Positions 1 through 56,512 of a stretch of 64,000 nt of DNA are shown piece by piece. Numbering within the stretch: position 1 is the stretch's first letter; the number at the start of each line of letters is the position of its first letter. The position numbers were made by a program, and so were the translations under genes. The stretch is from contig CAKOPC010000002.1 in assembly GCA_934098705.1 (NCBI GenBank), forward strand, positions 158,457 to 222,456, written 5' to 3'. This DNA is from an uncultured Bacilli bacterium. Lineage in GTDB: Bacteria > Bacillota_I > Bacilli_A > RF39 > UBA660. The notes beneath the pieces are model-generated. The model did not search any database and was not told the origin of the DNA. It was given only the letters and a program-made list of their open reading frames with translations.

Positions 1-1000
1 CTACTGATTTATATAATCCACTTGCATCTCCAACACTTGAATATGTATCAGTAAGTGTTGCAGTAGCACTTAATACATTACTATTATTAGTACCTAATAT
101 TAACGTACTAAGTGATTTTGAATTTGATTTTATACTTAAACTTTCTGTTGTACCATAACCCTTTATTTTAAATGTAAATGTTTCACTATTTGTATCTGCG
201 ACATGTTCCACATTTGTACTTGTTCTTTTCTTTATTATATTATTTGTAAGCATATATTTAATCATATTATTATCTTCTGCAGCACCATCTAAAAATTCTA
301 GTGTTTGTCCTTCTATAGAACCAGTACCATTACAAAATGCTGTTGCAACATCAGTACTAACTGATACAGCATTTGCAACAAATGTAGCACATGCTGAAAC
401 ACTTACTACTTCATACTTTTCACTTCTTGCAATTATTGGAAGTTTATAATTTTCATCTATCCATGCTTTTAATGTGTATGTATGTACTTCACTTCCACTT
501 ATTACATCTGTTAATAAAACATGACTATCCATAATGTTTTCTATATAAAGTGGTTTAAAACTAGATATTAATTCTCCTTTATTTTCTGTAAAGCCTGCCC
601 CTACCTCATTTCCCTTTTTCAAATATATTTTTATGTAGTCTTGTGTTAAAGTATTTCCTTCTTGTATATCTGTTATACCTAAGGCATAATTTACTTTAGT
701 ATCTCCTGTTATATCACTTGTAACAGTAAATGTCATTTGTGAATTTGTATCAGTATTTGCTAAGCCTTCACTATCTGTTTCAGGATACCTATTTTGAATA
801 CTAATATTATTCACATCATTAAATGTAATTACTATATGTCCTGTTTGTATTACATTTTCTTTTGTTCCACTGCCTGTAAATGTATACATAGCATATGAAA
901 GTCCAACCGTTATTACTAAAAGAAGTATTACAAATATTACTGGTATTATATACCTTTTAGTTTGTGATACCCCCCCCCCAGTTGTAAACATTTGTTTCAT
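1..1000 (-). CDS. Secreted TasA/camelysin-like protein with a SipW-cognate-type signal peptide. Partial: the C-terminus runs off the window start.
   Basis: The minus-strand frame is open from an ATG at 1000..998 to position 1 (checked by hand). The N-terminus reads MKQMFTTGGGVSQTKRYIIPVIFVILLLVITVGLSYA|MYTFTGSGTKENVIQTG, which is a signal anchor with S-x-A before a predicted cleavage site. The same architecture and motifs (NALP-like segment, Y-x-L-K-A-W near the C-terminus) occur in the paralogs at 13758, 38014, 39466, 40222, 40992 and 41779. The ORF track does not list it because it is truncated by the window edge. Confidence 0.6.
   Translation of the reverse strand, partial: MKQMFTTGGGVSQTKRYIIPVIFVILLLVITVGLSYAMYTFTGSGTKENVIQTGHIVITFNDVNNISIQNRYPETDSEGLANTDTNSQMTFTVTSDITGDTKVNYALGITDIQEGNTLTQDYIKIYLKKGNEVGAGFTENKGELISSFKPLYIENIMDSHVLLTDVISGSEVHTYTLKAWIDENYKLPIIARSEKYEVVSVSACATFVANAVSVSTDVATAFCNGTGSIEGQTLEFLDGAAEDNNMIKYMLTNNIIKKRTSTNVEHVADTNSETFTFKIKGYGTTESLSIKSNSKSLSTLILGTNNSNVLSATATLTDTYSSVGDASGLYKSV
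970..979 (-). repeat. Homopolymeric tract of 10 C on the plus strand, that is G10 on the coding strand, inside codons 8-11 of the TasA-like paralog.
   Basis: Read directly from the sequence: tgataCCCCCCCCCCagttg. On the minus strand it encodes GGG GGG GGG G and is in frame as sequenced. A 10-bp G/C homopolymer is far outside expectation for a genome of about 25% GC. Confidence 0.8.
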
Positions 1001-1139
1001 AAAACATCCTTCTTTCTTATCTTTTTCATATTTATTTTAACAAAAAAATTTGTTAATTACAAGTAATTTAAAAAAATAGTTTTATGTATAATTTTTAAAT
1101 CATTTTTCATAATAAAAATAGATAAAAAGGAGAAAGTTT

Positions 1140-3104
1140 ATGAAGATTATAAAAAATATATTAAGAGTGTTAGTAATTATATTTTTATTATTTAGTAGTT
1201 TTAATCTTTTTGGCAATATATATGCTAAATTTTCTCCTAAAATAAATATAAAAAGTGCTAATAGTTTTTACATGTATGATAAAGATAAAACTCTTATATA
1301 TCATGGTAGTAGTATTGGTAATAATACTTGGGTTAATTTAGAAGATATGGGAGATTATGCTGTTAAAGCAACTCTTTCAGTTGAAGATAAAGATTTTTTT
1401 AATCATAATGGTTTTAACTATTTAAGAATAATAAAAGCAATTTATGAAAATATAAAACATAGAGAAATAGTTCAAGGTGCCTCAACTATTACTCAGCAAT
1501 ATGCTAAAAACTTATTTTTATCTTTTGATAAAACATGGCAAAGGAAATGGAAAGAAATGTGGCTTACCTTTACTCTTGAGGGCAATTATAATAAAGATGA
1601 AATATTAGAAGGTTATTTAAACACAATAAATTATGGTAATGGCTGTTATGGTATTGCAAGTGCTTCTAAATATTATTTTAATAAAGATGTAAAAGATTTA
1701 AATCTAGCACAAATATCAATACTTGTTGGTATTCCTAATTCTCCAAGTAACTATTCTCCTAATTATAATTATGACTTATCAAAAGAAAGACAGGAAGTTG
1801 TATTAAATAGAATGGTTGATAATGGTTATATAACAGAAAATGAAAAGGATATAGCATATAATACAAAATTAGAGTTTTATAATAAGCATGATACTTATAA
1901 CTTAACAACTCTTTCTTATTATAAAGATGCTGTTATAAAAGAACTTGAAACTATATCAAGTGTACCTGATAATTATATTGAAACAAATGGTCTTAAAATA
2001 TACACAAATCTTGATATGTTAGCGCAAACATCTCTTGAAGATGGTTTAAAGGAAAATAAAAAGGTAAAAAATTCTCAAAGTGCAAAAGTTATGATAAGAA
2101 ATAAAGATGGTGCTATAATCGCTCTTGTTGGAGGTATAAATTATGAAGAATCATCATTTAATAGAGCAACTGATTCTATAAGACAACCTGGTTCTTTAGT
2201 TAAACCGTTTTTATATTATAAAGCTTTAGAGCAAGGTTTTACTGCAAGTAGTAGTTTTGAAAGTGCTAAAACGACTTTTAATTTTAGTGATAAAGATAGT
2301 TATACTCCAACCAACATAAATGGAACATATGCTAATAAAAAAATTACTATGGCCCAAGCATTAGCCTACTCAGACAATATCTATGCAGTTAAAACTCATC
2401 TTTTTTTAGGAGAAGAAAAATTAGTTGAAATTTTAAAAAAATTAAATATTACAACACCTTTAAGCCCTTCCCCATCTCTTGCTCTTGGAACATATGAGGT
2501 AAATATAATTGAACTTGCAAGTGCTTATGCAACTTTAGCAAATGAAGGTATGATGATAAAACCTCATCTAATAAATGAAGTTTATGATATGAATGATAAT
2601 TTATTATATAAATATGAAAATAAAGATGAAGTAAAACTACTTGATGCAAAATTAACCTTTATAATAAGTGAACTTTTAACTGGTACATATGACACTAACT
2701 TAATTGACTATACTTATCCAACCTGCATCAATTTGCTTGATAATATAACTCATAAATACGCCATTAAAAGTGGTAGTACCGATACTGATGCTTGGGTTAT
2801 TGGCTACAACAAAGATTATGTTCTTGCTTCTTGGTCTGGATATGATGACAATAAAAAAATTGAAAATAGTATTGTTTCAAATAATAAAACATCTTGGATA
2901 AAATCAATGGAAATGTACTTAAAAGATAAAAAAGACTCTTGGTATAAAATACCTGAAGGTGTTGTAGGTGTATTAACTGATCCAACAACAGGAGAAGTTG
3001 CAACAGAAGATAGTAAGCATAAAAAAATTCTTTATTATGTAAAAGGTACAGAACCTAATAGTAATAAAGAAATTGATGATTTAATCAAAGATATGGTAAA
3101 CTAA
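1140..3104 (+). CDS. Class A penicillin-binding protein (bifunctional glycosyltransferase/transpeptidase, PBP1A family)
   Basis: It has an N-terminal signal anchor. The GT51 motifs are present: SVEDKDFFNHNGFN, GASTITQQYAKN, RKWKEM and LEGYLN. The transpeptidase motifs are present: SLVK (SxxK), YSDN (SxN) and KSGST (KTG-like). Confidence 0.85.
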   Translation: MKIIKNILRVLVIIFLLFSSFNLFGNIYAKFSPKINIKSANSFYMYDKDKTLIYHGSSIGNNTWVNLEDMGDYAVKATLSVEDKDFFNHNGFNYLRIIKAIYENIKHREIVQGASTITQQYAKNLFLSFDKTWQRKWKEMWLTFTLEGNYNKDEILEGYLNTINYGNGCYGIASASKYYFNKDVKDLNLAQISILVGIPNSPSNYSPNYNYDLSKERQEVVLNRMVDNGYITENEKDIAYNTKLEFYNKHDTYNLTTLSYYKDAVIKELETISSVPDNYIETNGLKIYTNLDMLAQTSLEDGLKENKKVKNSQSAKVMIRNKDGAIIALVGGINYEESSFNRATDSIRQPGSLVKPFLYYKALEQGFTASSSFESAKTTFNFSDKDSYTPTNINGTYANKKITMAQALAYSDNIYAVKTHLFLGEEKLVEILKKLNITTPLSPSPSLALGTYEVNIIELASAYATLANEGMMIKPHLINEVYDMNDNLLYKYENKDEVKLLDAKLTFIISELLTGTYDTNLIDYTYPTCINLLDNITHKYAIKSGSTDTDAWVIGYNKDYVLASWSGYDDNKKIENSIVSNNKTSWIKSMEMYLKDKKDSWYKIPEGVVGVLTDPTTGEVATEDSKHKKILYYVKGTEPNSNKEIDDLIKDMVN

Positions 3105-4168
3105 TAATTAATGTTATTAGTTTTTATTTTATTTAACTCTTTCTCTAACATATTAACAAATATTGATGGTGTTACAATATAGGAGTCAAAACCAAAATCT
3201 CTTAAATAACTTTTTATAATTTTATTAACATCTTGATTAGTAATGTTACAGTTAGATAAAAGTTCTCTACTATTACCATCTCTTGTAAAACATTTATAAT
3301 CAATATTATTATTTGATAAAGCTTTTATTAAGTGTGTTTTACCATATTTTTCTAAAGTATTAAAACATGCATTTAAAAAGACATCTTGTTTATATTTAAA
3401 CATAGCCTCTTCTTTTTTTATATTACTAGGGCTACCTATAATATCATAAATACTTCTATTTTGATTACATGATAAAGCAACTATTTTATATATCTTTTTA
3501 AGTGTTTTATCATCTACTATATTAGCACTATTATTAGCATAATTTTTAAAATCATTAACAGAACTTAAACCTGTTTGTAAAAAACTATGTATAAGTGTTG
3601 CTGTTTCATAATTATATGATTTATTAGCATCATGTGATAATCCTACATTTCCTTCTTTTATAACAAAAGGATTAGTATCTATAGCACCTTCTTTTAAATA
3701 TTTATTATTGTTAACAAATTCTATAACTTTTAAAGCCTCTTCCCTGTTTGATACTCTAATTACTATATCATCACTTCTTACAGTACTTGCTACTTTACTT
3801 TGATGTTTTATATTATTATCATCTAAAAATCTAAATATAGAAACTGCTCCATTATATATATGTTCTTTATCAAGTGGTACATATAGTTTTATTTCAGTGT
3901 CATTGCATGGAAAATAATCTTTACTTTTAAAAAGACAAAACGAACTAGCTCTTTCATTTCTATATGAATACATATTTTTAAATTTTAAATCTAAAAAATC
4001 TTTAAAATAAAAACTAATATCTTCTGGTCTATTAAAATTTGAAATGCCATGACAAAGACGTGAATAAATAAAGTTAGCATCAATACGACCTGGGTTTTCC
4101 ATCATAAATTTCTTTATAACTTGCAAAAAATTATTTATTTTGTCTATATTATTCATAAAATTCCTCAT
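3101..4168 (-). CDS. Hypothetical protein, 355 aa, with no recognisable motifs. It is translationally coupled to pduL.
   Basis: A long ORF with coding-like composition. Its start overlaps the upstream pduL stop by 20 nt. Confidence 0.5.
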   Translation of the reverse strand: MRNFMNNIDKINNFLQVIKKFMMENPGRIDANFIYSRLCHGISNFNRPEDISFYFKDFLDLKFKNMYSYRNERASSFCLFKSKDYFPCNDTEIKLYVPLDKEHIYNGAVSIFRFLDDNNIKHQSKVASTVRSDDIVIRVSNREEALKVIEFVNNNKYLKEGAIDTNPFVIKEGNVGLSHDANKSYNYETATLIHSFLQTGLSSVNDFKNYANNSANIVDDKTLKKIYKIVALSCNQNRSIYDIIGSPSNIKKEEAMFKYKQDVFLNACFNTLEKYGKTHLIKALSNNNIDYKCFTRDGNSRELLSNCNITNQDVNKIIKSYLRDFGFDSYIVTPSIFVNMLEKELNKIKTNNINY

Positions 4169-13757: not shown

Positions 13758-14429
13758 TTAAGCTATTGTTTCAACATTTACCTTAAATTTATAACTATAA
13801 TTTTCTAAAACAATATGTTGTTCTCCATTATCTTCTTTTGTATTTGTAAATAATGAATTTATATCATATCCATCTTTAATCCATAAACGAAGTCTAAAAG
13901 TTTGAGAAAGTTCTCCCCCATCTTCATTTTCAAAAGTAAATATTCCTTGAGTTAAATACTTATAACTTCCTAAATAATCATCAAGATTACTTACTAAAGT
14001 TGGAAAAATATTTTGTACTTCAGTCCCACTACTAAGAGTTGTAAGATAAGCTTTTATAGCATCATCTGGATAATCATAATCTGTTTCTATTCTTTGTAAG
14101 TAAACAACATAATTTATAACTGTTGGTCCATCTGCTGTTGCCTTAACAGTAAACTCATAATAATCATCCATTATTTTACCATCATCATCAGTTAAAGAAC
14201 CATATGCTAAAAAGTTATAATTATCTACTTGTTCTTTGTATGAAAATGAAATTTTAGAAGTTGTAATACTATGTTCTTTATTACCTTCCAAAACTATATT
14301 ATAAGCTGCAAAAGAAAAACCAATTATAAAGACTAACCCAACAAGTATTAAAATAAAAAGCTTTTTTGCATTTTTATTTTCCATATTCATAAAATCACCT
14401 TCGTCTATCATATATATAAATTTTATCAT
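13758..14429 (-). CDS. Secreted TasA/camelysin-like protein with a SipW-cognate-type signal peptide (scattered paralog)
   Basis: It has the signal anchor LFILILVGLVFIIGFSFA|AYNIV. Shared family motifs are ITTSKISFSY and FRLRLWIKDGY (compare LRIWVDANAD and LKAWIDENY in the paralogs). Confidence 0.55.
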   Translation of the reverse strand: MIKFIYMIDEGDFMNMENKNAKKLFILILVGLVFIIGFSFAAYNIVLEGNKEHSITTSKISFSYKEQVDNYNFLAYGSLTDDDGKIMDDYYEFTVKATADGPTVINYVVYLQRIETDYDYPDDAIKAYLTTLSSGTEVQNIFPTLVSNLDDYLGSYKYLTQGIFTFENEDGGELSQTFRLRLWIKDGYDINSLFTNTKEDNGEQHIVLENYSYKFKVNVETIA

Positions 14430-24860: not shown

Positions 24861-25040
24861 AAGACACCTCCTTATAAAATATATTTTAATCGTGCCTTTA
24901 TAAAAAGTCTTTGTAAGACACTACAAAGACTTTAATATACTTAATTTTAAAGTCCTCGGTAGGATTTACTTTTACAACCTACTGTCTACGGCACAAATAA
25001 ATTTCAAATGTATTATATAATACTTTTATTAATTTGTAAA
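24861..25040 (-). promoter_or_regulatory. Putative L10 (rplJL) leader / autoregulatory 5-prime UTR
   Basis: A 190-nt untranslated gap lies between rplA and rplJ. It contains a perfect 11-bp hairpin (aagtctttgta-agacac-tacaaagactt at about 24907-24934) and further GC-containing stems (cctcggtaggattt...cctactg). This location carries the L10 leader in Firmicutes. Confidence 0.4.
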
Positions 25041-36803: not shown

Positions 36804-37328
36804 CTATAACTCTTCCATATTTTGTTCTTTTACGGGCATATTTGTACTATTTTGTCGTAAATTGTCGGTACTTGCTTCTACATAACTTATCATATTTTCA
36901 TCCTTGGATTTTAATAAAGATGAAATAATAAGAAATATATTAGAAGCACTAAGGCAGTATAAAAGTGCCTTAACTGATGATAAATTATCTGCTAAATAAC
37001 TAGGATTATAATTTATCTTATATTTATAATATAAAAGCATATTAGTATCAAATTTAGCTCTTAAACCAATTATTATAATAACTACATATACTAAAACACT
37101 AGCAAAATTAAATAATAAGTTTTCAGCAGATTTTGACTTTTTATAAATTATATTAACAACTGTTAAAATAAATACTAAAGCAAATGGAATAAATATATTA
37201 ATTGCATCAGTTAAACTCTTATCAAGTCTTTTATAAGTAAATAAAATTCCAATAAATATAAGAGCAAATGCAATAAACATTAAAATAAATTTTAAAAAAT
37301 TAAACATCTTAGAAATTATCTTTTTCAT
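36804..37328 (-). CDS. Small polytopic membrane protein; the last gene of the sipW-containing operon
   Basis: The protein is 174 aa with 4 predicted transmembrane helices. It follows the 37331 gene at a 2-nt spacing. Confidence 0.5.
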   Translation of the reverse strand: MKKIISKMFNFLKFILMFIAFALIFIGILFTYKRLDKSLTDAINIFIPFALVFILTVVNIIYKKSKSAENLLFNFASVLVYVVIIIIGLRAKFDTNMLLYYKYKINYNPSYLADNLSSVKALLYCLSASNIFLIISSLLKSKDENMISYVEASTDNLRQNSTNMPVKEQNMEEL

Positions 37329-37330
37329 AC

Positions 37331-38017
37331 TTAATTACCTCCTGCATTATCTAAATACCAATTAGCAATTAAAGTAACATCATTAAGTAATATATCATAA
37401 TTAGTAGTAGTTAAATTAAAATAATTTAGTAAATCATTATAAATAGAAACCTTACTATTAACAGTTGTAAAATAATAACTACTATTATTAAGTAAATGAT
37501 TTTTCATATCTTCTCCATAACTTGATAACATATTTTTATCATTTTCTATTCTGTCATAATAATCATATTTAAGATTACTATTATAATCTTCTATACCCTT
37601 TTTTATAAAGTAATTAGTTTTAAATAAACAGTTATACTGTAATTTACCAATTAACTCATTATTATAATCATAAATGTCCTTATATTTTATATATTCTTTA
37701 TTTAAATTATAATAGCCACCTTTTTCTATTTCTTCTAAACAGGAAATTAAATCAAGCTGTGCAGTTGATAATACAAGTTTATTATCTAAAGATTTAGTAC
37801 TAGTATTTTTAATTTTTTCTTTCATAGATGTTATCTTTTCTTTATACTCCTTAAACCTATCACTATTTGCATAATCAGTATAATATTCATATTTTATTTC
37901 ATTATAATGATATAAATTAATAAATATTAAAAATCCAGATAACATAACTGTTATAATACATAAAAAATCAGTAAAAATACTTGAAAACTCATATAAAACC
38001 TCTTTTAATTCTTTCAT
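37331..38017 (-). CDS. Single-pass membrane protein of unknown function in the sipW operon
   Basis: An N-terminal transmembrane helix is followed by a 180-aa Y/N-rich domain. It overlaps the 38014 gene by 4 nt. Confidence 0.5.
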   Translation of the reverse strand: MKELKEVLYEFSSIFTDFLCIITVMLSGFLIFINLYHYNEIKYEYYTDYANSDRFKEYKEKITSMKEKIKNTSTKSLDNKLVLSTAQLDLISCLEEIEKGGYYNLNKEYIKYKDIYDYNNELIGKLQYNCLFKTNYFIKKGIEDYNSNLKYDYYDRIENDKNMLSSYGEDMKNHLLNNSSYYFTTVNSKVSIYNDLLNYFNLTTTNYDILLNDVTLIANWYLDNAGGN

Positions 38018-38631
38018 GGTAACACCTCTATTCTATATTTATAACCTTTATTAGCACCACTATTACTCCATAATTTTAATACGTAAGTATCTTTATTATT
38101 ATCTTTAGTAACTTCTTTTACTAAATGATTAGAAGTTATATCTTTTAAAGTACCACTTGCAACTTTTTTATTATTTTTATATAAAGCATAAGATATCATT
38201 GTTTTATCTATCATAGGTATATTAACTTCATTTAAAACTTCAGTTGTTATATAAATATTATAATTTAGTTCATGATTATTATCATTCATTATATAAAATT
38301 TATACTCATTAGCTTTATTTTCACTTGTATATTTAGAAAAGGAATTTATTGTAGTACCAAAATCAATTTTAGAATGAATAACAGCAATATCACCATCTTT
38401 TATAGTTTTATAATTTATATATTTTTTAGGCATGAAAAACGCATAATAAATTGAAAATAAAAGTAATAATAAAGATATAATAAATAAAATTATTATAATT
38501 ATATTAATCTTTCTTTTTTCCTTTAATGTAGGGTCTTTTCTATTTTCAACATCATTTGCAGGAATTTCATCATAAAACTCATCATTAAGATTAAATACAC
38601 CTTTTTTATAAGATTTCACAGTCATCATCAC
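38014..38631 (-). CDS. TasA-like paralog with an N-terminal cytoplasmic extension plus a signal anchor
   Basis: It has a 45-aa charged N-terminus, then IIIIILFIISLLLLLFSIYYA|FFMPKKY, which is a transmembrane segment followed by an AFF motif like the CalY AFFSD. The C-terminus LKLWSNSGANKGYKY carries the family W motif. Confidence 0.45.
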   Translation of the reverse strand: MMMTVKSYKKGVFNLNDEFYDEIPANDVENRKDPTLKEKRKINIIIIILFIISLLLLLFSIYYAFFMPKKYINYKTIKDGDIAVIHSKIDFGTTINSFSKYTSENKANEYKFYIMNDNNHELNYNIYITTEVLNEVNIPMIDKTMISYALYKNNKKVASGTLKDITSNHLVKEVTKDNNKDTYVLKLWSNSGANKGYKYRIEVLP

Positions 38632-39451
38632 CCTTTACATCATTGTTAATATCAGTAACATTATTATTAGCGTTATTAGCATTATTAATATCAGTAGTAT
38701 TAACATTGACATTAACATTATTATTATTGTTATCATAATCATCAAGTATTTCTACCTGTCTATTATCAATTCCCATATTATCATATACTTCATCAAGTTT
38801 TTCTTGTAAATCTGGTGAAACATACTTATTGTCTAATATTTTATTTAAATCTTCTCTTTTTGCTTTTGTTTTAGAATCTTTTAAACTTTCCTTAAAAAAT
38901 TTACCTTTCATCATTTTTTCAAAGATTTTAACAATATCATAAACAATAATAGCAAGACAAGGAAGCACAACAACAACAAGCCATCCAAATTTACTAACAA
39001 CAAACTGTTGTATAAACCCAGCCTTTGGTATTTTTAAAATTACTTTTCCAATTACATTAGTTGCAGATACTGGAGATCCATCTGCAGTATTATTAGCATC
39101 TCCTTTAGTATAATAAAAGTAACTACCGTTAACAATTTTTGTATCAATAATTCTATGGGTTATAATAACACCCTTTGAAATATTACCTTCGGATACAAAA
39201 GTAATGGGATCACCTGTTTTATAAATATTATTTTTATCCTTTAACGTAATAACTATATCTCCAGCTTTAATAGTGGGAGTCATACTAGTTGTTAGAATTG
39301 TATAAAAGTTTATTGGAATATCTCCTAATTTATCCTGCTTTTTATAAACATTAATTAATATAATATATCCAATAAGTAAAATTATAACAAGAAGTAAAAT
39401 ATAAAATATAATATTAGATATTATTTTAGCAACCTTTTTTACATTTTTCAT
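38606..39451 (-). CDS. sipW: Signal peptidase I, SipW (archaeal/ER type). It has an approximately 90-aa low-complexity C-terminal tail.
   Basis: An N-terminal transmembrane helix is present. The catalytic Ser is in ILTTSMTPTIKAGDIV and the catalytic His in VIITHRII. GDANNTADG is present, then a C-terminal transmembrane helix (WLVVVVLPCLAIIVY). The extra tail is rich in N/V/D repeats. Confidence 0.8.
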   Translation of the reverse strand: MKNVKKVAKIISNIIFYILLLVIILLIGYIILINVYKKQDKLGDIPINFYTILTTSMTPTIKAGDIVITLKDKNNIYKTGDPITFVSEGNISKGVIITHRIIDTKIVNGSYFYYTKGDANNTADGSPVSATNVIGKVILKIPKAGFIQQFVVSKFGWLVVVVLPCLAIIVYDIVKIFEKMMKGKFFKESLKDSKTKAKREDLNKILDNKYVSPDLQEKLDEVYDNMGIDNRQVEILDDYDNNNNNVNVNVNTTDINNANNANNNVTDINNDVKGDDDCEIL

Positions 39452-39465
39452 AATTTTTCCCCTTT

Positions 39466-40107
39466 TTAATATGCATCAACATTTACATAACAACTAAAAG
39501 TTTTTTTAATTTCATCAAGTTCATAATCCTTAGATAGCCACATTTTAAATGTATATGCCTTTCTTGAATCACTAAGTACTGTTGTTTTATAAAGAACCTT
39601 AGAATTTGGTCTTATACTACTATTAGGTAAGTCAGCATAATTATTTACACTTCTATTATTAATAAGTATTTCCTTGCCATCTTCAAGAAGATATATTCTA
39701 ACATACTTTGAATCAAGTGTTGTAATATTTGGTGTTAATGATATTTCATATGTTATTTTACTCTGTTTTTTAGATTTTATAGATGTTGCAACTCCAAATG
39801 TGAAATATTCTCCCTCTTTAAAATTTTGTTTACCTATATCATCACTTGTTGGAAGAGCATTATCAATATTAATAGCTCTGTTTCCCTCTTCAAAAGAAAA
39901 CAAAATACTTCCTGTTTGAATATAATTATCAACATAAGGGTCATGAATTGAAAAGTTTGAAAATATTAGTAGTGAAAAGAAAGAAACAAGTAAAACAAGT
40001 AATATTAAAAGAACCCAAAGAAAAACATTAGTATCTTTTTTCCTTATTAATATTTCATCTGCTACTTTATCCGCTACCTTTAAATCCTTTTTATTAAATT
40101 CTTCCAT
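39466..40107 (-). CDS. TasA-like paralog. By position it occupies a TapA-like slot upstream of sipW.
   Basis: It has an N-terminal charged segment plus a transmembrane helix. It shares NALPTSDDIGKQ with 40992/41779 (NALPISDDAGKK) and has YTFKMWLSKDYELD. Confidence 0.5.
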   Translation of the reverse strand: MEEFNKKDLKVADKVADEILIRKKDTNVFLWVLLILLVLLVSFFSLLIFSNFSIHDPYVDNYIQTGSILFSFEEGNRAINIDNALPTSDDIGKQNFKEGEYFTFGVATSIKSKKQSKITYEISLTPNITTLDSKYVRIYLLEDGKEILINNRSVNNYADLPNSSIRPNSKVLYKTTVLSDSRKAYTFKMWLSKDYELDEIKKTFSCYVNVDAY

Positions 40108-40170
40108 AGTATCCCTACCTTATTATCTATATATATATTAACACATATTTTTAGTAAAAAAAAGTAAAAT

Positions 40171-40206
40171 ATAAAAAAAACATTACTATTTTTGTATAGT
40201 AATGTT
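40171..40206 (-). terminator. Strong intrinsic terminator after the gene at 40222..40944
   Basis: On the minus strand the perfect 11-bp hairpin aacattactat-N6-atagtaatgtt is followed by a T8 run. Confidence 0.75.
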
Positions 40207-40221
40207 AATGTATATTCTCTA

Positions 40222-40944
40222 TTAAGCTTGTTGTTCAGCGTAAAGTTTAATTTTGAATTCATACTTTTCAGATAAAGATTCATTAGAATGAGTGTTACCA
40301 GTTGAAGTATCTTTAGTAGGTAATACATATTTATCATTTACCCAAGCACGTAGTTCATAAGATTTAAGACCTGAAGCTGTAAATGAATCAGCATCAAGTA
40401 AATAATTAGCTATTCTACCTTCAGCATTATTTGCTTTACCTAAAGTACCTTCAGCTTCAGCTATTGTATTAAATCCAACTCCAGTTGTAGCAGTACCTTT
40501 TAAATATTCAGTACCTTTCTTTAAATTGAAGTTAACTTCACTATCTTGTAAGCATCCATAAGTTACAGCACCATCAGTTGTTTCAGTACAAGCATTTTTT
40601 GTAATTCCTACTTCATAATTAATAGTAGTATTACCACTTAAAGTTGCTGCAACATAAAATTTTAATAATGCAGATTCTCCTGTTGCAGGAGTAATTGCAG
40701 AACCTTTGCCATCTGTCATTGCATATTGATTAGTTAATTTTATTTGTGTTTGATCTGTCAACGCATCTCCAGTTTCTGGGTCTGTTGTTGGATCAACAAC
40801 AACTGAAATACTACCTGTTGTGATTACGTTTTCTTTTGTACCAGTTCCAGTGAAACTATACATAGCATAAGAAACGCCAACAACAACTACGATTAGTACT
40901 AAAACACCAATAACAGAAAGCATTAATGTTTTTTTATTATCCAT
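40222..40944 (-). CDS. Secreted TasA/camelysin-like protein (SipW-cognate signal peptide)
   Basis: LMLSVIGVLVLIVVVVGVSYA|MYSFTGTGTKENVITTGSISV parallels the CalY sequence GGGTFA|FFSDKEVSNNTFAAGTLDL. The protein is T/G/A-rich and beta-type. The C-terminal motif is YELRAWVNDKY. Confidence 0.6.
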   Translation of the reverse strand: MDNKKTLMLSVIGVLVLIVVVVGVSYAMYSFTGTGTKENVITTGSISVVVDPTTDPETGDALTDQTQIKLTNQYAMTDGKGSAITPATGESALLKFYVAATLSGNTTINYEVGITKNACTETTDGAVTYGCLQDSEVNFNLKKGTEYLKGTATTGVGFNTIAEAEGTLGKANNAEGRIANYLLDADSFTASGLKSYELRAWVNDKYVLPTKDTSTGNTHSNESLSEKYEFKIKLYAEQQA

Positions 40945-40991
40945 AATTATTATTCCTTTCTATAAATTAAATTTTATTTGTCAATTATTTA

Positions 40992-41621
40992 TTATTGTCC
41001 TATTGCGTTTACTTTAGAATCAACGTTTACTTTAATTTTGTATTCTTGTTCTTTAATTGTATTAGCATCAGCATTTGCATCAACCCAAATTCTTAAATTA
41101 TAAGTTGTTGTTGCTTCACCTGTTTTTACAGTACCATTTTCATATGCAACACTTGTTTCATAAAGTTTGTATGCATCAGTTCTTAATGCTGATTTGTTAG
41201 AATCAAGTACAACTGCTGACATTAATTGTTTTGGAACTACTTCAGTTTCAGTTGTTGTACCTTTTGTTAAGTAAACTGCAACTGCAGAATCTGCAAGTGT
41301 TGAAGTTTCTTTAGTAATATTGATTTCATATGGTACAGTAACTGTTCCACTTGCTGTTGTTGCAACTGTAAATGTAAATACATTTTTATCACCAGTTAAT
41401 TTCTTTCCAGCATCATCAGAAATTGGTAATGCATTCTCAAGTAAAATACCGTTAGTTGGTTCAGTATAACTCATTGTAATAGTACCTGTTGAAATTGAGT
41501 TATCTTTTCCAGTTGCTCCTGTTGAATAAAGTGCAAAAGATACACCTACTACTGCAACAAGTAATATTGCTACTCCTAATACTGATAAGAATACTTTTCT
41601 TGAATTGTCTTCTTCCATCAT
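40992..41621 (-). CDS. Secreted TasA/camelysin-like protein, candidate major subunit (tandem duplicate A)
   Basis: GVAILLVAVVGVSFA|LYSTGATGKDNSISTGTITMSYTEP. It is about 80% identical to 41779..42408. The C-terminal motif is YNLRIWVDANADA. Confidence 0.6.
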   Translation of the reverse strand: MMEEDNSRKVFLSVLGVAILLVAVVGVSFALYSTGATGKDNSISTGTITMSYTEPTNGILLENALPISDDAGKKLTGDKNVFTFTVATTASGTVTVPYEINITKETSTLADSAVAVYLTKGTTTETEVVPKQLMSAVVLDSNKSALRTDAYKLYETSVAYENGTVKTGEATTTYNLRIWVDANADANTIKEQEYKIKVNVDSKVNAIGQ

Positions 41622-41778
41622 TTTTTTCTATCCTCCTTATATTATGATAATACTATATTTTTTGGGGAATTGCAATATTTTTTTGTTCTATTTTTTTATA
41701 ATTTTTAAAAATTAAATGTTTTATGTAAAGTATAAAAAAGGTATTACCCAAAAGGCAACACCTAAGTATTTAATTCTT

Positions 41779-42408
41779 TTATTTTCCTATTGCGTTTACT
41801 TTAGAATCAACATTTACAAATAGCTTATATGTTTGATCTTTAATAGCGTCAGCATCAGCATTTGCATCAACCCAAATTCTTAAATTATAAGTTGTTGTTG
41901 CTTCACCTGTTTTTACAGTACCATTTTGATATACAACATTTGTACTGTAAAGTTTATAAGAGTCAGTTCTATAAGTAGATTTATTAGCAGTTGTTACAAC
42001 TTGAGACATTAATTTTTTTGCAACAACCTCAGTTTCAGTTGTTGTACCTTTTGTTAAATAAACTGCAACTGCTCCATCAGCAAGAGTTGTTGAAGAATCT
42101 TTAGTTATATTTATTTCATATGGTACAGTAACTGTTCCACTTGCTGTTGCAGAAACTGTAAATGTAAATACATTACCTTCACCCTTCAAACTCTTTCCTT
42201 CTGCATCAGATATTGGTAAAGCATTTGTTAAGTTAATACCATTTGATGGTTCAGTATAACTCATTGTAATAGTACCTGTTGAAATTGAGTTGACTTTTCC
42301 AGTTGAACTAGTTGAATAAAGTGCAAATGATACACCTATTACTGCAACAACTAGAATTGCTACTCCTAACACTGATAAAAGTACCTTTCTTGAACTATTT
42401 TCTTCCAT
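41779..42408 (-). CDS. Secreted TasA/camelysin-like protein, candidate major subunit (tandem duplicate B)
   Basis: GVAILVVAVIGVSFA|LYSTSSTGKVNSISTGTITMSYTEP. The rest is near-identical to 40992..41621. Confidence 0.6.
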   Translation of the reverse strand: MEENSSRKVLLSVLGVAILVVAVIGVSFALYSTSSTGKVNSISTGTITMSYTEPSNGINLTNALPISDAEGKSLKGEGNVFTFTVSATASGTVTVPYEINITKDSSTTLADGAVAVYLTKGTTTETEVVAKKLMSQVVTTANKSTYRTDSYKLYSTNVVYQNGTVKTGEATTTYNLRIWVDANADADAIKDQTYKLFVNVDSKVNAIGK

Positions 42409-45542: not shown

Positions 45543-45775
45543 AAAAAAAATTTTCATCCCAAAGGACGAAAATATCGTGGTACCACCTTATTTTATAAGT
45601 ATAACAAAATAACAATGTTAAAACTTATCTCAATCTTTTAACGCAAGATAAACGTATTTACTTACATATCAGTAAATCTGTTCCAAAACCATGTTCAGTT
45701 TTATCTACTACTTATTTACACCGACCATAAGCTCTCTATTAATAAATATAAACCTACTCTTTTCTTCACAACATT
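45543..45775 (-). promoter_or_regulatory. Putative T-box riboswitch leader (specifier probably AUG/Met) ahead of dut-metS
   Basis: The minus strand carries AGAGAG followed by cttATGg (a candidate specifier). Further on is AAGGTGGTACCACGA, which matches the T-box sequence AGGGTGGTACCGCG. Then comes the terminator hairpin ttttcgtcc-tttg-ggatgaaaa plus a T8 run, then the RBS aaggagga and the ATG. Confidence 0.55.
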
Positions 45776-45807
45776 TTTTTAATGCATAAATTATAACATA
45801 TATTTTT

Positions 45808-56340: not shown

Positions 56341-56512
56341 AAATACCACCATTTTTTTAATATTAATAAAAAAGTGCACACACATAGAGGTTATTAAGGC
56401 TGCTACTTTCCAATCCTGACCTATTTCTAACATTTGTGTTGCACATATAAATACTAACAAAAATATTATTACTTTGTCAATAAATATTTATTTTTTTATT
56501 ATTAATATTTAA

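Follow-up and report, generated by a model that had tools for sequence, protein, structure and literature searches.

The window analysed here is a 64-kb stretch of DNA (25.8% G+C) from an uncultured Bacilli bacterium (GenBank assembly GCA_934098705.1, contig CAKOPC010000002.1, positions 158,457 to 222,456). Our subject is a run of ten guanines, the poly-G tract, just inside a minus-strand gene at the left edge of the window, and its very likely role as a phase-variation switch. A first-pass annotation, made from the window alone, had placed a C10 run at 970-979 and read it as an in-frame G10 on the coding strand, and direct reading of the sequence confirms both points. From the start codon the minus strand runs ATG (1000-998) AAA CAA ATG TTT ACA ACT GGG GGG GGG GTA; the frame is open as sequenced, and the tract begins at nucleotide 22 of the coding sequence, 21 nt past the ATG at 1000. 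The elements of the locus are listed below in window coordinates, with counts of copies taken from the survey of related contigs described further on.

1-1000, minus strand: visible part of the tract-bearing gene, 333 codons of a 569-residue product; the frame runs past the window start
887-889, minus strand: ATG of M38, the first in-frame start past the tract, directly after the predicted SYA cleavage motif
890-952, minus strand: coding segment for the hydrophobic signal/anchor sequence, Y17-A37, YIIPVIFVILLLVITVGLSYA, from the translation; tract-free homologs have an equivalent helix
946-948, minus strand: TAA met in the -1 state (G9 or G12), giving a product of 17-18 residues; this state is absent among the natural alleles surveyed
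957-959, minus strand: TAA met in the +1 state (G11, also G8 or G14), giving a product of 14 residues; all 11 natural frameshifted alleles are G11
970-979, minus strand: poly-G tract, G10 (C10 on the plus strand), encoding part of T-GGG-V within the signal/anchor n-region
998-1000, minus strand: ATG start of the tract-bearing gene, unchanged in 20/20 tract copies at about seven loci
1007-1012, minus strand: ribosome-binding site GAAGGA, 6 nt 5' of the ATG, unchanged in 12/12 aligned tract-bearing copies
1034-1062, minus strand: promoter-like TTGTAA-17 nt-(TG)TAAAAT, from a consensus scan; the similarity of the paralogous 5' modules begins here

The tract stands alone in its surroundings. All other G or C runs in the 64 kb are 5 nt or shorter, and a mononucleotide model predicts 8e-4 C10 runs and 4e-6 G10 runs in a stretch of this length, which bears out the earlier claim that the run is not due to chance. 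GGG accounts for 6% of the glycine codons in the window genes, corresponding to a probability of about 2e-4 for three in a row, and a run of ten lies within the length range (about 8 or more) at which homopolymers count as hypermutable. Two other roles for the run were considered and rejected: a G-quadruplex, because a single G run cannot fold into an intramolecular quadruplex, and a promoter spacer, because the tract lies 21 nt within the coding sequence and outside the promoter hexamers. An interrupted version of the tract, as a proposed construct design, would read GGAGGTGGA. Strand asymmetry in the window is very strong (mean GC skew about -0.26 on the plus strand; C 10,380 vs G 6,139) and nearly all genes are on the minus strand; the G tract thus lies on the G-rich, gene-rich strand.

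The full product of the tract-bearing gene is represented by P0129, a protein of 569 residues whose residues 1-333 match the window translation with 100% identity (here and below, P numbers denote proteins and L numbers contigs). It begins with a short basic n-region holding the glycine run, and the hydrophobic helix that follows ends in SYA; an AlphaFold2 model has a helix at residues 13-40 and then a beta-sandwich N-domain (predicted local distance difference test score, pLDDT, 76). At the C-terminus, beyond window position 1, lies a DUF6273 domain (residues 457-549; Pfam, 26.2 bits vs a cutoff of 23.5), and the 333 residues visible in the window match no Pfam or NCBIfam family. About 120 relatives emerged from a database search, almost all of them in assemblies of gut metagenomes. 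Those that are free of the tract (N-termini MSKKKD... and MEKDKKK...) all retain the equivalent N-terminal helix.

The hydrophobic signal/anchor segment lies downstream of the tract, so that it is lost in every frameshifted state. At G11 translation meets the stop at 959-957 after 14 residues and at G9 the stop at 948-946 after 17, which corrects an earlier estimate of about 11. Between the tract and the hydrophobic helix the window gene contains no in-frame ATG, GTG or TTG. M38, the start assigned by gene callers in frameshifted alleles, lies past the predicted signal/anchor segment and lacks a ribosome-binding site ahead of it. The first-pass annotation had recognized that a true start 3' of the tract would undercut its proposal; on the evidence available the translation start lies upstream, with the ribosome-binding site and ATG both 5' of a repeat that is itself inside the open reading frame. 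A dual-frame start at the ATG at 1007-1005, in frame with the body of the gene at G9, was considered and rejected: the position reads ATG TAA in L009, L011, L017 and L101, and its occurrence as ATG TAA in several paralogs means that there is no conserved alternative start.

To compare the tract among strains and loci, we surveyed contigs that encode the PBP1A of the window exactly, or that encode members of the family, all of them short-read metagenome assemblies (L002 originates from ERZ4566944 and L004 from ERZ27287019). Including the window, this gave 20 copies of the 5' module from at least 16 samples, 9 in frame and 11 out of frame, at about seven chromosomal loci. Their tract lengths and locations are:

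In frame, G10: window, L004, L009, L012, L101, L102
In frame, G11 behind a 5-nt context (AGATT): L011
In frame, G7: L103
In frame, G5: L010
Out of frame, G11 behind a 6-nt context: L001-3, L013-17, L098-100
Locus A: flank PBP1A; both tract states
Locus B: flanks Lon_C..RlmN; both tract states
Locus C: flanks MurJ-like..DivIVA
Locus D: flanks QueH..XseA
Locus E: represented by L012
Locus F: flanks DUF6512..RimM; both tract states
Locus G: upstream of Obg

Over 6,105 nt, the alignment of L002 with the window has no mismatch and a single gap, which is due to the tract (G11 vs G10); L004, with G10, shows 100% identity to the window over 5,292 nt. The first-pass annotation had called for just such a comparison of strains and had held that one identical tract length throughout would speak against a switch. 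The related contigs carry G5, G7, G10 and G11, near-identical strains are polymorphic for the tract with no other difference in 6.1 kb, and loci A, B and F each occur in both the on and the off state. Neither G9 nor G12 is found among the 20 copies.

Alignment of the modules shows that the similarity of the paralogs starts about 65 nt 5' of the ATG, at the promoter, and that the sequence farther upstream is locus-specific. Besides scattered single-base differences, variation within the module falls in the tract and in the 6 nt immediately 5' of it, where particular contexts pair with in-frame lengths (AGACTT-G10, AGATT-G11, AAACTT-G7, AGTAC-G5). These flanking changes compensate for tract length and keep the frame, which speaks for an N-terminus that is really translated and subject to selection. 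Protein sequences alone point to two further variants: P0147 has one extra glycine at its N-terminus, as expected from G13, and P0123 has STGGG, as expected from a long tract, where L010 has STG. Conservation of the tract, of its position and of the flanking module extends to about seven loci and to samples from both human and pig gut. A DNA-pattern scan of JGI metagenomes found one contig, L012, and a DNA-pattern scan of IMG/VR found no match; a protein-pattern scan of a species-representative genome collection gave 334 pattern matches and 0 confirmed relatives; the family is absent there.

The 3' end of the tract gene lies outside the window edge, and with it a feature that is invisible from the window alone, the variable end of a diversity-generating retroelement (DGR) target. 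L002 stands in here for the left flank of the window strain (window position 1 is L002 1861) and contains what looks like a complete DGR cassette:

L002 1-311: reverse transcriptase gene, RVT_1 (346-residue product, precomputed Pfam annotation), cut by the locus end
L002 292-648: bAvd gene (118-residue product, Pfam annotation)
L002 915-1015: template repeat (TR), 313 nt from the variable region
L002 1228-1328: variable region (VR), 101 nt, at the 3' end of the tract gene

Between the VR and TR of L002 there are changes at 17/37 adenines and at 0/64 other bases. When the VRs of other contigs are set against the same TR, L009, a paralog at another chromosomal locus, shows 20 adenine changes and 0 others, and L010 shows 19 adenine changes and 1 other. 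A gapless search for VRs fitting this TR returned L002, L009 and L010 only, and the VRs of the other paralogs differ in length. Our own profile scan of bAvd gave E=1e-8 and a score of 36.1 bits, short of the 40-bit cutoff. Published work describes DUF6273 as C-type-lectin-like and as a domain of DGR targets (PMC10743442). Taken together, the adenine-restricted TR/VR differences, the adjacent bAvd and reverse transcriptase genes and the DUF6273 domain mark the product of the tract gene, by its sequence, as a DGR variable protein, and every switched gene that we examined as DNA is also a DGR target. At locus A the PBP1A side is constant and the far side strain-specific, with the DGR cassette in L002, an ABC transporter in L001, mraZ-rsmH-ftsL-PBP in L003, radC-mreC in L010 and cofD-whiA in L011, an arrangement that suggests chromosomal rearrangement by recombination between the scattered paralogs.

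We then compared on and off alleles with respect to the rest of the gene. Off alleles keep an intact frame of 519-543 codons that opens at M38 and ends at the usual C-terminus, which would in principle allow them to switch back; the exception is L003 (locus A), whose 5' module has been fused to the VR end by an internal deletion, with a remnant of 62 residues. Five ON/OFF pairs (P0129/P0122, P0001/P0121, P0131/P0132, P0149/P0144 and P0163/P0162) are identical over all of their remaining 519-532 residues, including the DGR variable region. Such a region serves as a lineage barcode, and identity even there indicates that changes in the tract outpace both point mutation and VR turnover. Among the 54 cluster representatives with an MKQMF (in-frame) or M38-type N-terminus, 15/54 are full-length and 39/54 are called from M38, exactly 37 residues shorter. 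The M38-called genes inspected as DNA are all G11. Ten clusters at 90% identity contain full-length and 37-residue-shorter forms together, about 20 vs 34. Gene callers thus start about two thirds of the family at M38, by which the signal peptide is dropped from the annotation and the secreted nature of the proteins is hidden.

Two observations concern the distribution of the module itself. P0131, P0144, P0162 and P0172 appear on one 399-kb contig, as judged only from the 399,157 bp entry that they share; P0131 is full-length and the other three are M38-called, and if the four paralogs do share that contig, on and off copies would coexist within one genome. In one 90% cluster the same gene bodies carry differing 5' modules (P0154, P0157, P0159 and P0173 vs P0026, P0025 and P0039), with tract-free MEKDKKK... 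and MSKKKD... leaders besides the poly-G MKQMF... leader. Such swapping implies an exchange of 5'-end cassettes, which would lock a copy in the on state; the lysine-rich leaders MEKDKKK... and MSKKKD... may in turn carry poly-A runs.

We consider it very likely that the G10 tract is a hypermutable simple-sequence repeat (SSR) that acts as a translational on/off contingency switch of a signal-peptide-bearing protein. The slipped-strand phase variation suggested in the first-pass annotation is supported here by the length polymorphism, by the presence of both frames at single loci and by ON/OFF alleles in public assemblies that are otherwise identical. In the proposed mechanism, slipped-strand mispairing at replication would alter the run by one G, presumably at a high and reversible rate. 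With G10, G7 or G13, translation from the ATG at 1000 would read through the n-region and the hydrophobic helix into the entire 569-residue protein; with G11 it would stop after 14 codons, no start would be left to give an export signal, and the protein would be either unmade or unexported. The tract would lie within an N-terminal export or anchor segment, probably a cleaved leader if SYA is the cleavage site, and if the leader is removed there, in-frame changes of length would cost the mature protein nothing. The module of promoter, ribosome-binding site, ATG, poly-G and signal sequence heads paralogs at about seven loci, each of which would switch independently. The poly-G tract would set which copies are expressed, presumably at the cell surface, and the DGR would set the ligand-binding face.

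Several points weigh against this interpretation. Within-population heterogeneity, reversibility and a change in expression are predictions of the switch, and the evidence compared here is assembled sequence. The short-read origin of the assemblies, combined with a 5' module that is nearly identical at about seven loci, is a setting in which assemblers could mis-assign or collapse tract lengths. Contigs also break at or near the module, L006 ending at window position 996 and L004 beginning at 813. One could then imagine a single fixed tract length, with G10 and G11 arising from homopolymer miscalls or from collapse among the repeated modules, the sequencing or assembly hotspot that the first-pass annotation had named as its alternative. 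We judge such an artefact to be highly improbable, since the same projects and assemblers yield both lengths (for the Hadza samples, G10 in L009 and G11 in L002, L013, L015-17 and L098-100). Eleven contigs drawn from at least 9 samples share G11, with coverage of as much as 58x, and Illumina sequencing rarely miscounts a 10-mer homopolymer at the consensus level. The in-frame G5, G7 and compensated-context G11 alleles are real differences beyond +/-1 noise, and the G13 deduced for P0147 agrees with them. The tract is moreover just about 90 nt from unique, locus-specific sequence, a distance that we take to be within typical final k-mer sizes.

The distribution of the off alleles raises two further questions about the switch. 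All 11/11 are +1 (G11), with no G9 or G12, which fits a toggle between two lengths but also a favoured or leaky G11 instead of a state that is fully off. Homopolymers of 9 or more are known sites of RNA-polymerase slippage, and where the context is AGACTT or AAACTT, a TTG 5' of the n-region and helix falls into the frame of the body at G11 (AGACTT-G11 reads C TTG GGG GGG GGG GTA), so that either slippage on the G run or initiation at this TTG could provide graded rather than on/off control. This we regard as unlikely. The TTG is about 25 nt from the ribosome-binding site, too distant for Shine-Dalgarno-directed initiation, the ACAACT context of the window locus yields CTG instead of TTG, and the gene callers chose M38; slippage is best documented for A/T runs and less well for G/C runs. 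About two thirds of the copies are out of frame, a share also close to that expected from neutral drift among the three frames, and L003 adds its large internal deletion to the frameshift. Both would fit a redundant family with defunct G11 paralogs, in which the tract is prone to mutation but regulates nothing. Pseudogenisation of this kind nevertheless seems extremely improbable: apart from L003, none of the off alleles examined shows further damage over 519-543 codons and five off alleles are residue-for-residue identical to on alleles, the compensated in-frame variants indicate purifying selection on the frame, and the tract and module persist at about seven loci, and in samples from both human and pig gut, despite a strong AT bias that would be expected to erode a G run.

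With the on/off switch as the preferred interpretation, we turn to the kind of protein that is switched. The tract protein had been labelled TasA-like, a label that our searches leave unsupported. Neither the 333-residue fragment nor full-length P0129 matches TasA/Peptidase_M73 in Pfam or NCBIfam at E<=5, the tract protein has no sequence match in the PDB, and TasA is absent from the top 50 Foldseek matches in the PDB for both the N-domain and the full-length models, for which we found only weak beta-sandwich/adhesin matches with template-modelling (TM) scores of 0.25 or below. The full-length AlphaFold2 model (pLDDT 72.5) also gave no lectin match in Foldseek. There are two points of likeness: as in tapA-sipW-tasA of Bacillus subtilis, the window has a SipW-type peptidase beside secreted proteins, and the sequence ENVIQTGHIVI after the predicted cleavage site, in our reading, loosely resembles the motif of TasA. 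We know of no instance in which TasA is phase-variable through an SSR or diversified by a DGR.

The SipW/archaeal-type signal peptidase I gene lies at 38606-39451 (TIGR02228, 95.8 bits), in an operon-like stretch on the minus strand (36804-42408) that also encodes four small secreted proteins of 209-240 residues. Their N-domain is distantly paralogous (27-32% identity) to the N-domain of the tract protein, and their leader and post-leader motif are very similar to its own. A fifth N-domain paralog is encoded at 13758-14429 (minus strand), and none of the five genes contains a long homopolymer. The SipW-type operon may represent a fibre or pilus-like system that includes DGR-variable proteins. 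We therefore prefer to describe the tract protein as a predicted secreted protein, possibly processed by SipW, rather than as TasA-like; the SipW neighbourhood is circumstantial and no more than suggestive in this respect.

These elements can be joined in a broader proposal, which we offer tentatively and which we think somewhat more apt to fail than to hold. In it, one chromosomal DGR would rewrite in trans the binding tips of about seven or more paralogs, each gated by a poly-G tract. Silent copies would diversify free of selection until a one-base slip exposed the new variant, and the proteins might be adhesin subunits of a SipW-processed, TasA-like fibre.

It is instructive to compare this arrangement with known systems. 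Poly-G contingency loci are textbook material in a few Gram-negative pathogens; to our knowledge they are hardly documented in gut Firmicutes/Bacilli and not at all in uncultured commensals. The closest likeness is to opa of Neisseria, an adhesin family of 11-12 copies with CTCTT repeats in the signal-peptide coding region, whose scattered paralogs switch independently, most of them off at once, and have hypervariable exposed regions. In both cases a repeat in the leader-coding region shifts the frame and leaves the mature protein unaltered (here, if the predicted leader is cleaved), and many scattered paralogs are involved. The opa repeat, however, is a pentanucleotide whereas the tract here is a homopolymer, and Opa proteins are Gram-negative outer-membrane beta-barrels made hypervariable by recombination, where the present family has a retroelement. 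The tract also resembles the poly-G genes of Campylobacter jejuni, Helicobacter and Neisseria meningitidis in being an intragenic G run that would give translational on/off control in an AT-rich genome. Those Proteobacteria and Campylobacterota carry tens of tracts per genome, with experimental switching rates, whereas here there is one tract in 64 kb, in one gene family of uncultured gut Bacilli that is known from sequence alone. Among the genes concerned are hmbR, hpuA, lgt, capsule and flagellin-glycan genes. Their intragenic G8-G13 tracts give translational on/off control in AT-rich genomes, and adjacent tract lengths dominate populations (see PMC8355987, PMC3786947, PMC2192423, PMC5084427).

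As a DGR target, the tract protein is comparable to Mtd of Bordetella phage, TvpA of Treponema, LdtA of Legionella and the DUF6273 'tentaclins', with which it has in common a C-terminal VR of adenine-specific variation, a nearby TR, and bAvd and reverse transcriptase genes. A DUF6273 domain and several targets per TR are further shared features (PMC10743442). It differs in that the targets are chromosomal, lie dispersed between housekeeping genes and begin with a poly-G module common to them, and in that Foldseek did not recover the C-type-lectin fold from the AlphaFold2 model. Our full-text literature searches found no DGR target gated by an SSR. The mechanism is thus a classical one, and its use at the head of each copy of a DGR-target family in uncultured gut Bacilli appears to be unreported.

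What makes the combination of interest is that a commensal gut lineage, present in Hadza, other human and pig samples, would possess an opa-like multigene on/off system together with a DGR. DGRs raise the question of how cells tolerate the continual mutagenesis of a functional surface protein and couple diversification to selection, and a switch that silences most copies offers a testable answer. If the broader proposal made above is true, it would amount to a 'mutate in the dark, then test' strategy, in which opa-style combinatorial on/off control is added to hypermutation by a retroelement.

The setting of the tract gene in the window is chromosomal. Its neighbours are housekeeping genes (PBP1A, PduL, GerQ and Ung, with rpoB/rpoC farther along), the nearest relatives of RpoB are in metagenome-assembled genomes of 'uncultured Bacilli' (78, 72 and 70% identity), and the samples that yielded matching contigs are human gut (Hadza and others) plus one from pig gut. 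The host is a low-GC, uncultured member of the gut Bacilli and, since it encodes GerQ, probably spore-forming. Rfam and tRNA scans revealed no rRNA or tRNA in the window; the Rfam matches are:

24892-25009: L10 leader
45559-45778: T-box leader
56358-56453: SRP RNA

Between PBP1A and pduL, at 3101-4168 on the minus strand, lies an open reading frame of 355 residues that has no Pfam or NCBIfam match and is kept in every related contig, annotated there with 351 residues.

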